From a virus (taxonomy: Duplodnaviria > Caudoviricetes): 64,000 nt of DNA. This document shows positions 27,254 through 53,536 of this stretch, in pieces (the first letter of the stretch is position 1; the number at the start of each line of letters is the position of its first letter). The translations under genes and the position numbers were made by a program. The notes under the pieces are model-generated. The model was not told the origin of the DNA, searched no databases, and was given only the letters and a program-made list of their open reading frames with translations. The stretch lies in the IMG/VR virus record IMGVR_UViG_3300024297_000001; one strand, given 5' to 3'.

Positions 27254-27703
27254 TTATGCGTTAGCGAAATCGTCATCATCAGTACCTGATAATGTATCGT
27301 CATCACCTGCTTCTTCAATTTGAACAGCACTGTCATTGTTTGCAGTACTAAAGTTCCATGCAATTGATGTTCCGCCTAAAGCGTTTGAACCTGTAGCATC
27401 TGGTGCAATGATTGTTGCTTTTCTTCCAGAAATCTTAGAAATCTGATAAGTTTCTGCGTCATCACCTTTAACAGTGATAGCCATTTCAGTACCAGTCAAT
27501 GCTGATGCTAATTTTGCTGTTGTTAAGAAACGATCGTAAGTTGTTCCTGGTGTACCGATTGCCGCTACACGAAACTTCTTCGCACCTAATTGCTTAACAA
27601 TATAACCTTCAGTAACAGCAGAGCCGTTATGAAAGTCAACTTTGATTTCGTTGCCACCTGCTGTAGGTACTCCGAAAAACTTTTTATTAATTGGTCTTCC
27701 CAT
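27254..27703 (-). CDS. Hypothetical, probably virion-associated protein
   Basis: 149 aa (MGRPINKKFFG...) with strong SD AGGAG and a late promoter upstream. Confidence 0.65.
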   Translation of the reverse strand: MGRPINKKFFGVPTAGGNEIKVDFHNGSAVTEGYIVKQLGAKKFRVAAIGTPGTTYDRFLTTAKLASALTGTEMAITVKGDDAETYQISKISGRKATIIAPDATGSNALGGTSIAWNFSTANNDSAVQIEEAGDDDTLSGTDDDDFANA

Positions 27704-27807
27704 TTGTTTTCTCCTATATAAGTAGTCCTATCCGGGTTCTATCCGGTACGCAGTTGGTATTCTGCATAAGTCCGCCTTGCGGCACACTATCTGACACAAG
27801 TATTTAT
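27704..27807 (-). promoter_or_regulatory. Late promoter plus ~95-nt structured 5' leader
   Basis: ATAAATA at 27807-27801; hairpins GCC-GCAA-GGC, TATGCAG/CTGCGTA and CCGG/CCGG precede the SD. Confidence 0.5.
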
Positions 27808-28223
27808 CTAATAGACAGAACTGGAGAATATTTTGGCTTTGTTGCTATATTGATAAATTCACGTACAAAGTCAAATCTTAGTGCTAATAATTCGAATATT
27901 TCAATGTCTAAATTGGTTGTAGCAAGGTTGTAACTGCTTTTTCCAATATTGGAATAGTAGTCAATGCTCATACCATAATCAGGAAATACGCCTGTAACAA
28001 AAAGACACGTGTCACCCAGTTCTTTTGCTGTTAATCTATAAGGCTGTTTTAATGATAGATATGCTTCTGCGAATGTTTTTTCTGGAAGGAAATTTGGCTT
28101 GTCTAATTTGTCTGCAAGAAGCATTACTACATACGCTTCAACTTCTAATGGAAGTTCGTAACCTGTAGTTGACTGTGCGTCTTTGACCAAGTCGTAAAAG
28201 GCCGTTGTGTATTCGTCCTTCAT
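27804..28223 (-). CDS. Hypothetical protein (139 aa; probable start ATG 28223 rather than 28247)
   Basis: MKDEYTTAFYDLV...KELGDTCLFVTGVFPDY...DYYSNIGKSSY. The late promoter at 28235-28229 lies inside the longer ORF-track version, which favours the downstream ATG. Confidence 0.65.
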   Translation of the reverse strand: MKDEYTTAFYDLVKDAQSTTGYELPLEVEAYVVMLLADKLDKPNFLPEKTFAEAYLSLKQPYRLTAKELGDTCLFVTGVFPDYGMSIDYYSNIGKSSYNLATTNLDIEIFELLALRFDFVREFINIATKPKYSPVLSIR

Positions 28224-28249
28224 ACAAGTATTTATCGGGGAAAACAACT

Positions 28250-28475
28250 ATAACACTACTCGGGAGGCCTTGCTGTGAACTCACCTCCAACTTTCGATAA
28301 GCAGATCACATCTGAATTTTGCAAGGTTTAGATATGATACCTACTTCCAACCACCTCCATCTAAACCGAGCCACTTGGCCGCTTAAAAGACTTTAGTGTG
28401 CATTACGCCCCTGCCGAAGCGTTATTCTGCCACAAGTGCTAAGAGCTTATAACTCTCTTAGTTTGTGTTAAAGTT
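28250..28475 (-). ncRNA. Candidate small structured RNA (element A)
   Basis: No credible ORF; GC-richer than its flanks. Upstream sigma70-type promoter TTGCTT-17-TATATT; multiple stems including CTAAGAG/CTCTTAG, GGTTTAGAT/ATCTAAACC and CCTTGC/GCAAGG; G-U pairs favour the minus strand. Confidence 0.5.
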
Positions 28476-28481
28476 AATATT

Positions 28482-28539
28482 AATATAACATTGTTTGCAG
28501 AAAAAAGCAAGAGGTAGGTTTACCAAAATATATATTTTG
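28482..28539 (-). promoter_or_regulatory. Sigma70-type promoter with an upstream 16-bp perfect palindrome
   Basis: -35 TTGCTT (28510-28505), 17-nt spacer, -10 TATATT (28487-28482); CAAAATATATATTTTG at 28524-28539. Confidence 0.55.
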
Positions 28540-28549
28540 ATTTAGTCAT

Positions 28550-28579
28550 AAAAAAAGGGCGACCAAAGCCGCCCTTTTT
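28550..28579 (-). terminator. Rho-independent terminator after the major capsid gene
   Basis: GGGCGGC-TTTG-GTCGCCC followed by a run of 7 T on the minus strand. Confidence 0.85.
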
Positions 28580-28602: not shown

Positions 28603-29766
28603 TTAACTGAATGTTACACCTGTTACAGATACACGTGCCAAGTAGTCAGCCGCATTACCAAGAGATGATGCAGTGTTGTTTAACTCTACATAACCATATC
28701 TTGTCATGAAACTTACTACTGGTTCGAATGAACCTGGATCCAACACAACGCCTGAAGACATTAGCGGAATGTATGGGCAATAGAATGCCGCCGCATCTGC
28801 TTCTGATGTTCCTTTGTATCCAACAAGTACGTCTGTACTGTCTGATGCATAAGCGTCTACGTATACTTTCATAGCACTGTTTAATGTACCAACAAGTTTA
28901 GTGTTAGTAGGTGCTTCAAAAGTTCCTTCAGTTGTTCTTGCGAACGCTGAAGTTGTAGCAGACTGAAGTACTGTTAACGTATGCGGTGATACCACTGCAA
29001 AGTTACCAGCGCCACGTCTTGTACGCTGTGCGATCTTGTTAGCCGCTCTGTTAATCATTACAGCAAGTGCCGCATGTTCGTCACCGACGAATGTAGCAGT
29101 TCCTGATACAGCAGTTTGATCGTACTGTACATCTGATTCAGCCGCGCCAGCCAAGTTACGTAAAGAAGCAAGAACTTCTTGGTCGATTTCAGCAGTAATT
29201 TCTTGTGCTAAAGCCGCCATAATTTCCGCTTCAACGTCGATACCCTGTTGTGCTTGTGCATCTTGTGCAGATTCAAAAGTCCAACGAGCACTTAACTTAC
29301 GTGTTTTCGCTTCAACTGTTTGTTTTAAGATCTGAATTGACAATCTCTTACCTGCTTCACCTTCAAGTGCCGCTGTAGCAGATGCCTTATCAGTAGATCC
29401 ACCACCTGAATAGCCTAAGCCAATCTTGAACGGTGATAGAGCCTCTTCGCCTGCAGTCACATCATCTAATGTGTCTGAGTAACGAACTCTTAATGTGTGG
29501 ATTTGACCCACTGGTCCTGTCATAGGTTGAACACCAACGATTTCGTTAGCGATCACTGTAGGCATGACCCTTCTTATTACTGGTAGGATAACTCTATTTA
29601 AAGTTGCAACATTACCGGCAGAAGTTGCTCCTGCTGTAGCCGACTCAGCCAAGTATTTCTTGGTGTTGTCAAGCGTAGCAGACATAACAGACTTCTTATT
29701 GCCTTGTAGGCCTTCAAGTAATGCGCTCTTAGTTTCCTGCCATCTACTTTCTAATAGTTCTGACAT
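28603..29766 (-). CDS. gp23: Major capsid protein (T4 gp23-like)
   Basis: VIRRVMPTVIANEIVGVQPMTGPVGQIHTLR, VEAKTRKLSARWTFE..QD, LAQEITAEIDQE, FYCPYIPL, FMTRYG motifs. Confidence 0.95.
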   Translation of the reverse strand: MSELLESRWQETKSALLEGLQGNKKSVMSATLDNTKKYLAESATAGATSAGNVATLNRVILPVIRRVMPTVIANEIVGVQPMTGPVGQIHTLRVRYSDTLDDVTAGEEALSPFKIGLGYSGGGSTDKASATAALEGEAGKRLSIQILKQTVEAKTRKLSARWTFESAQDAQAQQGIDVEAEIMAALAQEITAEIDQEVLASLRNLAGAAESDVQYDQTAVSGTATFVGDEHAALAVMINRAANKIAQRTRRGAGNFAVVSPHTLTVLQSATTSAFARTTEGTFEAPTNTKLVGTLNSAMKVYVDAYASDSTDVLVGYKGTSEADAAAFYCPYIPLMSSGVVLDPGSFEPVVSFMTRYGYVELNNTASSLGNAADYLARVSVTGVTFS

Positions 29767-51551: not shown

Positions 51552-53081
51552 ATGGCTAACGAAAAAAGAACGGTAGGACAAGAAGCATTAATGGACGCAG
51601 GTCCATACGTTGGACGTGTGGTTGGCCATCTTGATCCAAACTATATGGGTGCATTGGAAGTACAACTGCTCAAAGGCACAACAGGTAACAATGACGACAG
51701 TGAAGGTCAAACGTTCAAGGTAAGTTATGCAAGTCCATTCTGGGGACAAACACCAGTTAATGGTATCAGTGCAAACACAGACTTTGCATACACACAATCC
51801 GCTTATGGTATGTGGATGACACCGCCGGACGTTGGCAGTAGAGTAATTGTTGTGTTTGCGGAAGGCGCGGCCAACATGGGTTTCTGGATTGGTTGTATAC
51901 CTGACAACTATGTTAACCTAAACGTACCAGACAAGGTTGCATCAACTTTCTTTACAGGTAGTCCCAAAGGCGAAGGTGCCAAGGAAGCCAAGAAGCGTAC
52001 TGGTAAGGTTGTTGTTGGAGAAATTAACAAAAAGAATCTCGCAGACAACAAAGGTAACGACCCTACAAAATTTAAAAAGCCTATCAATGAAGAATGGATG
52101 GACTTACTGCACAAAGCAGGACTTGCCTCAGATGGCACAAGAGCATTAACAACAAGCAGTGCAAGGCGTGAACTGCCAAGCATGGTGTTTGGTATAAACA
52201 CACCTGGACCTTATGACAAGCGTCCTGGTAGTCCTAAAGCAGGATACGGACCGGGCGGTACAGCGGCACAGGTTCCTTTCAATAGACTTGGCGGCACTGT
52301 GTTTGTAATGGACGACGGAGATGACAAGATTTTACGTAAAGGTCCGGCGTCAACTACAAAGAAAGAATATGTCAATGTTGAAAAGGGTGAAAAGGGTGGA
52401 GATGTAACGCTACCACACAACGAACTTATGCGTATCAGAACACGCACAGGACATCAAATATTATTCCATAACACGGAAGACTTGGTACGTATAGATCATG
52501 GCAGTGGTAACAGTTGGATAGAAATGACTGCTAATGGTAAAATTGATGTGTATTCAAAAGACAGTATTAGTATGCACACTGAAAACGATTTCAATCTGAC
52601 AGCGGATAGAGACATTAACCTAAACGCAGGACGCAACTTTAACGTGTTATCAAAAGAAGACATACAAGTTGAAACTAATGCAAACATGACAACATACGTT
52701 GCAATGAACAATCAAGTTACAACACTGTTAGATTATGATGTAAACACAACTGGAGCAAACAAGTTTACAGCAGGAGGCACAACGGACATCAACTCAGGAG
52801 GCAACCATACAGAAACTGCTCCACAGATCCATATGAATGGACCGCAGGCGGCCACCGCTACCGCAGTAACTCCGTTATACACACACGTCTTGCCCGGCGC
52901 TACCGCTACCGCTACAACTTCGTTGCATCGACGCTTGCCACAGCATGAGCCGTGGTCACATCACGAAAACGTTGACCCTGAAGTGTATACACCAATTAAA
53001 ACTGATAGGAACCTTGAATTAATAATGACGTCAGCATTTGATTATGATAATGCTCCAGATACGTTCAAGAAAGGTGTATAA
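51552..53081 (+). CDS. gp5: Baseplate central spike (gp5/VgrG-like, OB domain plus beta-helix, no lysozyme domain)
   Basis: GRV....DP..MG.L.V, YGMW..PPDVG..V.V.F, RIRTRTGHQI, SWIEMTANGKIDVY. Confidence 0.75.
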   Translation: MANEKRTVGQEALMDAGPYVGRVVGHLDPNYMGALEVQLLKGTTGNNDDSEGQTFKVSYASPFWGQTPVNGISANTDFAYTQSAYGMWMTPPDVGSRVIVVFAEGAANMGFWIGCIPDNYVNLNVPDKVASTFFTGSPKGEGAKEAKKRTGKVVVGEINKKNLADNKGNDPTKFKKPINEEWMDLLHKAGLASDGTRALTTSSARRELPSMVFGINTPGPYDKRPGSPKAGYGPGGTAAQVPFNRLGGTVFVMDDGDDKILRKGPASTTKKEYVNVEKGEKGGDVTLPHNELMRIRTRTGHQILFHNTEDLVRIDHGSGNSWIEMTANGKIDVYSKDSISMHTENDFNLTADRDINLNAGRNFNVLSKEDIQVETNANMTTYVAMNNQVTTLLDYDVNTTGANKFTAGGTTDINSGGNHTETAPQIHMNGPQAATATAVTPLYTHVLPGATATATTSLHRRLPQHEPWSHHENVDPEVYTPIKTDRNLELIMTSAFDYDNAPDTFKKGV

Positions 53082-53089
53082 ATATTGAT

Positions 53090-53536
53090 ATGAGCAGTTT
53101 AGAAAAAAATACAGTAAGAAATGTTAAAGTATCATCAAACGTCAAAGAAAGACCTCCTGTAAAAAGCAGAGCATACAAAGGTCTTAGCACAGTCAATTCT
53201 GACAATACTTCTTATGCATTGTATGACATTGGCTTGATTAAACAAGATTTACTGAATCACTTTCATATTAGACAAGGCGAAAAACTTGAAAATCCTGAGT
53301 TTGGGACTATCATTTGGGACGTTTTGTTTGAGCCTATGACTGATTCATTAAAAGAAGCAATTATAAACAATGTAACAGAGATTGTAAACGGTGATCCAAG
53401 AGTAACTGCATCCGCAATAGTTGTTGACCAGTATGAAAGTGGTATTCAAATTGAGTGCGAACTTACGTACTTGCCATACAACATATCTGAGAAACTGAAG
53501 TTTGAATTCGATCAGAACTCAGGCTTTGGCGTGTAA
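53090..53536 (+). CDS. gp25: Baseplate wedge protein (T4 gp25-like)
   Basis: IKQDLLNHF.IRQGEKLENPEFG..IWD.LFEP...DPRV. Confidence 0.85.
   Translation: MSSLEKNTVRNVKVSSNVKERPPVKSRAYKGLSTVNSDNTSYALYDIGLIKQDLLNHFHIRQGEKLENPEFGTIIWDVLFEPMTDSLKEAIINNVTEIVNGDPRVTASAIVVDQYESGIQIECELTYLPYNISEKLKFEFDQNSGFGV

Follow-up and report, generated by a model that had tools for sequence, protein, structure and literature searches.

What is encoded in the gap that follows the major capsid protein gene in IMGVR_UViG_3300024297_000001, a virus record from IMG/VR of which we analyzed a stretch of 64,000 nucleotides (the window)? A preliminary description, made from the sequence letters, had seen in this gap an independently promoted small RNA, here called Element A, and had suggested that it works in trans by exposing two Shine-Dalgarno-like motifs. 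We consider it fairly probable that Element A, at 28243-28475 on the minus strand, encodes, as a free-standing gene, a structured non-coding RNA of ~230 nt. This RNA would be transcribed from a sigma70 promoter and would represent a divergent variant of manA, with its GGAGG motifs serving as strands of helices. The window holds a single copy, which scores 275.9 bits with R1, a covariance model built from Element A; the assignment also draws on 34 homologues, on the divergent likeness to the manA model of Rfam (RF01745, 19.4 bits) and on contigs from RNA libraries. Under this proposal, host sigma70 RNA polymerase would transcribe Element A, hence as an early-type gene, from a promoter set between the late structural genes of what is probably a marine jumbo T4-like myovirus, and the RNA would act in trans as a folded, possibly self-associating particle.

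An RNA with its own promoter

The promoter of Element A (28482-28510, minus strand) is of the sigma70 type, with the -35 box TTGCTT (28510-28505), a 17-nt spacer and the extended -10 box TGtTATATT (28490-28482). With just 3 of 6 matches in the -35 box, it escaped a simple promoter scan. The preliminary description had recognized this promoter in the window, and we find it in every homologue. We collected homologues from the loci around capsid homologues and by three pattern scans with different seeds (two in IMG/VR and one in metagenomes). The collection amounts to ~50 copies with 34 distinct sequences, which are 80-97% identical to the window copy. Every one of the ~50 copies comes from a marine virus or metagenome contig, and the neighbouring genes are a T4-like capsid gene, gp32 or ClpP. 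By BLASTN we found no match to Element A among 50,697 GenBank phage records, and an 18-mer taken from the loop of its terminal hairpin (P5), which is invariant, led to no real copy in 185,000 genomes of bacteria and archaea; three bacterial or archaeal matches to the 18-mer are due to chance, being 18-22 nt long with nothing else aligned, and do not represent host copies. There is no conserved open reading frame (ORF) in Element A, as the preliminary description had judged for ~225 nt of the window sequence: 1-nt indels among the homologues disrupt every frame, including one short frame that starts from a UUG three bases past the first TGGAGGTG motif.

In each of four unrelated gene contexts, Element A is accompanied by a promoter of its own. 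In the first, which is that of the window, it lies between the capsid gene and an ORF whose product begins MKDEYT. In the second and third contexts Element A is followed by a second promoter and then by a gp32-like single-strand-binding gene or a ClpP-like gene, and in the fourth it is followed by an ORF of 80 amino acids. The promoter in the three contexts other than that of the window has TTGACA or TTGACT as the -35 box, the same 17-nt spacer, and TATATT or TATAAT as the -10 box. At one related locus (L132; we number related loci with L) the MKDEYT ORF is missing and the Element A RNA is retained.

These contexts bear on the possibility that Element A is a cis-acting, riboswitch-like 5′ leader that controls the downstream ORF, which in the window has 139 codons. 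This would correspond to the original classification of manA among cis-regulatory riboswitch candidates (PMC2864571). The window has no canonical terminator between Element A and the ATG of the 139-amino-acid ORF (28223), which is 20 nt downstream, so that read-through as a leader is possible, and the ORF itself lacks a Shine-Dalgarno sequence. Both observations speak for a leader. However, the four downstream genes are unrelated, a separate promoter is interposed in the gp32 and ClpP contexts, and L132 keeps the RNA without the ORF. The RNA contigs described below end at 28253-28259, with a ~20-fold drop in depth over the ORF; neither GGAGG stem sequesters a start codon; and a conserved box resembling a late promoter (GATAAATA), 5 nt before the ATG, could drive the ORF alone. 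Nor did we find in Element A the combination of a constant position in the 5′ untranslated region and an expression platform that characterizes a cis-regulatory leader. U-rich tracts follow its closing helix P0 in most homologues. Element A probably does not regulate the adjoining gene, and we regard the leader as an improbable explanation.

A separate observation concerns the gp32 context, where a conserved stretch of ~100 nt (UUAGCA...UUGCUAUC..GGCAAU...AGGCAA) lies between the second promoter and the gp32-like gene–for example, at 2696-2883 in L089, and likewise in L156, L155, L127, L151 and L193. It may be a gp32 autoregulatory leader, comparable to the GP32-associated candidates in PMC10690425.

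Free-standing transcription of Element A is consistent with RNA libraries. Three metatranscriptome runs (with three study records) each contain one whole contig of 191-206 nt, beginning at 28253, 28255 or 28259 and extending to 28449 or 28457, with zero mismatches. The depth of the Element A contig is 58-65 in two of the runs and 10 in the third, compared to 0-3 in the flanking bins (28184-28227 and 28492-28535), and it is from Element A to the 139-amino-acid ORF that the ~20-fold drop occurs. The force of this result is reduced by the nature of contigs, which cannot give true ends, strand or level, and by the possibility that the three runs, all from seawater in 2018, represent one campaign. 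An oligo-dT run (X1) has a flat depth of 2-3.5 across genes and spacers alike and is therefore uninformative. There is thus moderate support for Element A as a discrete RNA: the contigs agree with a predicted transcript from 28475 to ~28243, and a discrete molecule is probable because the promoter and the closing helix, with its 5′ strand, are both compatible with a start near 28475. Contigs within 28253-28457 with low flanks agree with the discrete transcript anticipated by the preliminary description.

Upstream of the promoter, the preliminary description had reported a terminator of the capsid gene gp23 followed by a 16-bp palindrome, and both are present (28552-28579 and 28539-28524, minus strand). 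It had gone on to suggest control of Element A by a transcription factor. The palindrome, CAAAATATATATTTTG (28524-28539 by direct reading), is AT-rich and lies ~50-65 nt upstream of the predicted start. Close relatives keep only its outer arms, CAAAAT..ATTTTG, and it is gone in the other gene contexts, a pattern which does not favor that suggestion. From its sequence the palindrome looks more like an AT-rich upstream (UP-like) element than an operator.

Covariation and the two GGAGG motifs

We derived the fold of Element A using RNAalifold and counts of pairs in ten helices, with a control in which the partners were slid by 1-3 columns. In an alignment of 17 sequences, 99.8% of cells are paired and there are 17 compensatory pairs, compared to 0-3 in the slid controls; with all 34 distinct sequences the values are 99.6% and 18 compensatory pairs, compared to 0-4. 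Together with the promoter in four contexts, this covariation bears out the central claim of the preliminary description, that Element A is an independently promoted, structured non-coding RNA. We set aside the minimum-free-energy fold of the single sequence (z = -2.3), which disagrees with the covariation fold.

The strand of the transcript is fixed by the many conserved G-U pairs. The same pairs bear on the idea that Element A is a DNA-level element, such as an origin, packaging or recombination site, or else a small protein-coding gene. Its location at a hypervariable hotspot behind the capsid gene would suit a DNA element, but on the opposite strand the conserved G-U pairs would turn into A-C mismatches, the promoter keeps its register among homologues, and RNA libraries contain a discrete contig; as for a small gene, the frame-disrupting indels exclude a conserved ORF. 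We find either version scarcely credible.

An eleventh helix, P0, closes the RNA. Its 5′ strand, AACUUUAACAC (28465-28475), consists of the first bases after the promoter and pairs with the 3′ strand, GUGUUAUAGUU (28246-28256), which is followed by a U-rich tail. P0 covaries, with six different cognate sequence pairs among the homologues, and the duplexes have a mean of -11.8 kcal/mol for cognate strands and -6.5 for non-cognate strands. Within P0, the P1 hairpin (28439-28461) has 7 bp, with compensatory changes in 5 of the 7 pairs, and a 9-nt loop, AGUUAUAAG, which includes the self-complementary sequence UUAUAA. Next comes a long-range helix between ACUUG (28433-28437) and CGAGU (28258-28262), in which three of the five pairs are compensatory (AU/CG/GC, CG/UA and UA/GC). 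It is followed by a putative module of the manA type (28400-28430), conserved in sequence as GC-AGAAUAA-[P2]-UAAU-GC, where P2 is a hairpin (28422-28416 paired with 28411-28405, loop GGCA) with three compensatory pairs. The central arm (28350-28401) consists of the helices 28401-28395/28355-28350 and 28391-28388/28362-28359 and the P3 hairpin (28380-28377/28372-28369), which have one, three and two compensatory pairs, respectively. An 8-bp hairpin (28306-28337; 28337-28330 paired with 28313-28306) has nearly all its cells paired, with three pairs varying on one side only, and carries a 17-nt loop. The terminal hairpin P5 (28263-28288) has the stem GGAGGU/GCCUCC, in which an A-U pair covaries to G-C, and an invariant 14-nt loop.

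The 17-nt loop has complements elsewhere in the molecule: AAACC (28329-28325) complements GGUUU at 28367-28363, and CCUUGC (28326-28321) complements GCAAGG at 28273-28268. Both complementarities are invariant, so there is no covariation to read in them; the candidate pseudoknot, GGUUU/AAACC, was helix 8 in the count on 17 sequences. The fold is open to objection at this and other invariant helices that give no covariation signal, namely 28431-28426/28305-28300 and the GC/GC pairs that flank the manA-type module, and the latter also compete with an RNAalifold helix, GGCAGA/UCUGCU.

The two copies of TGGAGGTG are exactly where the preliminary description had placed them, at 28359-28352 and 28289-28282 on the minus strand, and neither has a start codon at a usable distance. 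The preliminary description located both in the loops of large-looped hairpins, and it suggested a guide with exposed loops, a sponge for an RNA-binding protein, or a decoy for ribosomes or their anti-Shine-Dalgarno sequence, GGAGGUG being complementary to the 3′ end of 16S rRNA. Some features agree with a decoy or sponge that presents GGAGGUG to this 3′ end. The two copies are exact, and the window has 7 occurrences of the word where 1.2 are expected. The GAGGUGGUU part of the first copy is nearly invariant, being altered only in L159 and L176, where its partner alters too, and GGA of this copy is unpaired in the model.

The covariation fold nevertheless puts the second copy in a stem and leaves the first mostly paired. 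In the second copy, which is part of P5, GGAGGU (28288-28283) is the 5′ strand of the stem with GCCUCC (28268-28263). The A-U pair of this stem is G-C in 12 of the 32 distinct sequences (GGGGG/CCCUCC), and the stem reads GUAGG/CCUAC in the related RNAs of L019, L017 and L030, so the motif becomes GGGGG or GUAGG along with its partner. The first copy (28352-28359) has its T and GGTG paired, making 4-5 of its 8 letters, with one compensatory change. T28359 closes the helix 28391-28388/28362-28359, which has the three compensatory pairs mentioned above, and GGUGGU (28355-28350) pairs with GCACACU (28401-28395), with a double change from C-G to U-A in L159 and L176. This leaves GGA (28358-28356) as the sole unpaired part, and L146 and L132 have A in place of its first G.

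A decoy would present single-stranded, sequence-constrained GGAGG in loops, whereas both motifs here are largely helical, the same terminal hairpin is a generic feature of manA, no start codon is in reach, and the one short frame is disrupted by indels. We rate the decoy as very improbable. In the covariation model both GGAGG motifs are, for the most part, structural helix strands and not ribosome bait. Element A is in this respect a cautionary case, since GGAGG-rich words in an intergenic region of a phage can be ordinary stem strands.

Relation to manA and the capsid-downstream locus

When Element A was searched alone (251 nt), RF01745 aligned over its full length to 28253-28461 (19.4 bits, E = 0.0039). 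The alignment covers four modules: the 5′ hairpin and the long-range helix (positions 1-33 and 183-187 of the manA model), the GAAUAA/UAA hairpin with its internal loop (36-71), and the terminal hairpin (162-183). Matches were also found from the other side. R1 finds L019 and L017 at ~19 bits, and L019 scores 45 bits with RF01745, making it an intermediate form. A second model (R2), based on the canonical and intermediate manA RNAs of this locus, has Element A as its best match in 9 kb when filters are off (13.7 bits, E = 2 x 10-4; the next match has 7.1 bits), and scores the L159 copy at 18.2 bits. In L002, L052 and L060 the corresponding site behind the capsid gene holds canonical manA, with scores of 75-80 bits. 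The L060 copy is a stand-alone promoter-RNA-terminator unit, with TTGACA-16-TATTAT located 8 nt upstream and its own terminator, and L019 and L030 share the window's promoter and carry a different RNA.

Several points weigh against kinship. Apart from being weak, the match of Element A to RF01745 falls short of the gathering cut-off of 55.2 bits. The centre of manA (~75-160, ~90 model positions) does not align to Element A, in which covariation backs another arm and a large-looped hairpin. RF01745 gave no match to Element A in searches of 1.5 kb and 64 kb, and R2 with default filters missed most Element A copies, finding 1 of 9 sources. An independent new class of RNA would account for the low score, the unalignable central half and the R2 result. 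The likeness to manA would then be due to convergence, or to short modules having been swapped at a recombination hotspot, and not to common descent; canonical manA also has no P0 and no large palindromic P1 loop (the loop in L060 is GACG). But the reciprocal matches are above background in three directions, the intermediate L019 has the same promoter, P0 and P1 loop, and both RNAs have the same order and topology of modules at the same locus behind the capsid gene. We think an independent origin unlikely. Because weak reciprocal matches coincide with a common locus, promoter and set of modules, we conclude that Element A is a distant manA variant with a replaced central domain, and a non-member by the criterion of Rfam. 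It would have kept the manA frame of 5′ hairpin, long-range closing helix, GAAUAA/UAA internal-loop hairpin and terminal hairpin, would have swapped the three-hairpin centre for one long arm and a large-looped hairpin, and would have gained the extra 5′/3′ closing helix. This variant is not described in the manA literature that we consulted, which comprises the 2010 discovery paper (PMC2864571), a cyanophage genome note and a 2026 preprint.

We also considered a second region of the window, at ~42943-43025 ("Element B"), as a relative of Element A, and rejected it: R1 and R2 were both blank there, even with filters off. A 12-mer, TTGGAAGTAGGT, that is common to 43010-43021 (plus strand) and 28350-28339 (minus strand) is within chance expectation for a 230-nt query in 128 kb.

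The upstream neighbour of Element A is the gene for the major capsid protein (gp23-like; 28603-29766, minus strand; PHROG 138, E = 1.4 x 10-100). Its product is 66-71% identical in amino acid sequence to the capsid proteins of the jumbo phages Vibrio 2.275.O, Serratia BF, GAP32 and PA5oct, jumbo myoviruses that are its closest cultured relatives. All genes around Element A are on the minus strand, with prohead protease and baseplate genes nearby. We estimate the genome size of this phage group at ~300-350 kb, from CheckV on related contigs (for which 124 kb is 35% complete) and from one metagenome contig of 306 kb. The nearest virus record (G001), a fragment of 19.7 kb, does not include the Element A locus. 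A terminator scan identified the intrinsic terminator of the capsid gene at 28545-28579 (minus strand; stem 28579-28552, then a T run), and it is kept after the capsid gene in many relatives.

On the other side of Element A, the 139-amino-acid ORF (MKDEYT...; 27804-28223, minus strand) belongs to no known family. Its start is pinned by conservation in L019 and ~20 other contigs. Neither this ORF nor the 149-amino-acid ORF at 27254-27703 has a match in PHROG or Pfam. A freshwater-2 RNA (RF02980) at 27701-27786 (minus strand) scores 73.8 bits, against a cut-off of 49.9, and extends up to the translation start of the 149-amino-acid ORF, with its Shine-Dalgarno sequence and ATG; in many relatives this motif also precedes the homologous gene (MGRPINKRFFG...).

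The GATAAATA sequence before the 139-amino-acid ORF is an instance of a box, (G/A/T)ATAAATA, that resembles the T4 late promoter TATAAATA and is found 5-6 nt before the ATG of several genes. Its sites in the window are at 28236-28221, 26222-26207, 22430-22414 and 33469-33454, all on the minus strand, and at 53077-53092 on the plus strand. The box and its spacing before the 139-amino-acid ORF are kept in relatives. Judged by the position of the box, genes that have it may be expressed as leaderless late transcripts that start at or beside the start codon.

Structured RNAs are concentrated at a hotspot in relatives, the gap that follows the capsid gene, with glutamine riboswitch aptamers, manA, freshwater-2 and a tRNA occurring in tandem and in varying combinations (L002, L009, L038, L060, L052, L021 and L139). 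A tRNA and tmRNA search of the window and of the related loci examined found none. Gaps at the hotspot reach 600 nt, and some stretches match no assigned RNA–for example, 5281-5702 in L009, and others in L012, L023, L027 and L041. At L030 (5480-5530) and L060 (4712-4745), the manA RNAs (of the type-2 form described below and canonical, respectively) have clear intrinsic terminators at their ends. After these comes the TTTTTTAATGAC/TTTTTTTATGAC word, as it does after the capsid terminator. This repetition suggests that terminator-promoter-RNA units have been duplicated or exchanged in the manner of cassettes.

Self-association and comparison with known RNAs

The apical loop of P1 tends to be self-complementary. 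A strict palindrome of at least 6 nt is present in 13 of the 17 distinct P1 loops, compared to 2.6 expected from shuffles, a test that overstates significance because the loops are AU-rich and the sequences are related. With G-U pairs allowed, the loop is self-complementary over at least 6 nt in 14 of 15 distinct hairpins. The palindrome itself varies, being UUAUAA, UAAUUA, UUUAUAAA or UUAAUUAA in Element A copies and UAGCUA in type-2 RNAs. Such a palindrome is the signature expected of a kissing-loop dimer interface, which we take as a hint and not as proof. manA is reported to form octamers, decamers and a 60-mer cage in vitro via kissing loops (bioRxiv 10.64898/2026.07.01.735769). Because of these multimers and because the P1 loop is kept self-complementary, we propose that Element A probably self-associates, at least into dimers.

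A more speculative extension, to which we lend only slight credence, is that Element A is a new architectural class in a wider manA superfamily of self-assembling phage RNAs. It would be made from an early, strong promoter of host type, would dimerize via the P1 loop, and would form RNA-only particles through AAACC/GGUUU and CCUUGC/GCAAGG contacts between molecules; in cells infected by a jumbo phage, some factor of the host or the phage could be scaffolded or sequestered by the particles. If this is true, the manA cages seen in vitro reflect a biological role in trans and not riboswitch function.

On the fairly probable reading that Element A is a distant manA variant, several consequences follow for a family that has stood as an orphan "riboswitch candidate" from 2010 onward and whose in vitro cages were reported only in 2026. 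The manA-type RNAs of marine jumbo phages would be transcription units that stand alone (here a promoter and the RNA, in L060 a terminator too) and interchangeable cassettes at the capsid-downstream hotspot. The family would extend far past the Rfam model, to a form with a rebuilt centre that is seen as a discrete RNA in ocean metatranscriptomes. The question would shift from the ligand that is sensed to the role of a particle in trans, and Element A would provide a second, natural architecture with which to test the parts required for assembly and function.

Compared to manA (RF01745; Weinberg et al. 2010, PMC2864571), Element A is similar in source and size, since both come from marine metagenomes or T4-like phages and are ~200 nt long. 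Both have a 5′ hairpin and, after it, a long-range helix enclosing the rest. Element A probably also has the GAAUAA...UAA internal-loop hairpin of manA, which in the canonical version of L060 is GCGC-UAAUAA-hairpin-UAA-GCGC. Both have a terminal hairpin, UUGGNGGU..CCNCC, right before the 3′ strand of the long-range helix; the manA form is GugGG...CCcaC, the hairpin of Element A is GGAGGU/GCCUCC, and that of L060, L011 and L049 reads UUGGAGGU. Both also have their own promoter and, in relatives, the same site downstream of the capsid gene. They differ in the centre, which in manA is a 6-bp helix with three hairpins (one with a GUGGUG loop, one variable, and one with an ACCA loop) and then a long penultimate hairpin; Element A has instead one long three-helix arm and the hairpin with the 17-nt loop. 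Element A also has the added closing helix P0, and its 9-nt, self-complementary P1 loop differs from the GACG loop of the L060 manA, which, unlike Element A in the window, has a terminator hairpin.

The type-2 manA variants (L019, L017, L030, L067, L041, L011, L047 and L049), which are at the same locus and score below threshold, share with Element A the promoter, position, P0 and terminal hairpin, and their P1 loop (UAAUUA or UAGCUA) is comparable to its P1. Unlike Element A, they keep the manA centre (a GGG-GUGGUA-CCC hairpin etc.), reach 45 bits with RF01745 and have a clear terminator (L030); matches between Element A and these variants amount to only ~19 bits.

Two other RNAs, freshwater-2 (RF02980) and the glutamine riboswitch (RF01739), occupy the same capsid-downstream hotspot as Element A in this phage group. 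They are short cis-regulatory motifs whose ends coincide with a start codon or come directly ahead of it, whereas Element A has no fixed downstream gene. ROOL and GOLLD are large phage-associated RNAs that form RNA-only multimers. They are far larger than Element A, and we found no sequence or model match between Element A and either of them. Like them, and like the manA cages, Element A is phage-borne and highly structured, and its loops appear, from sequence, to be suited to loop-loop contacts.

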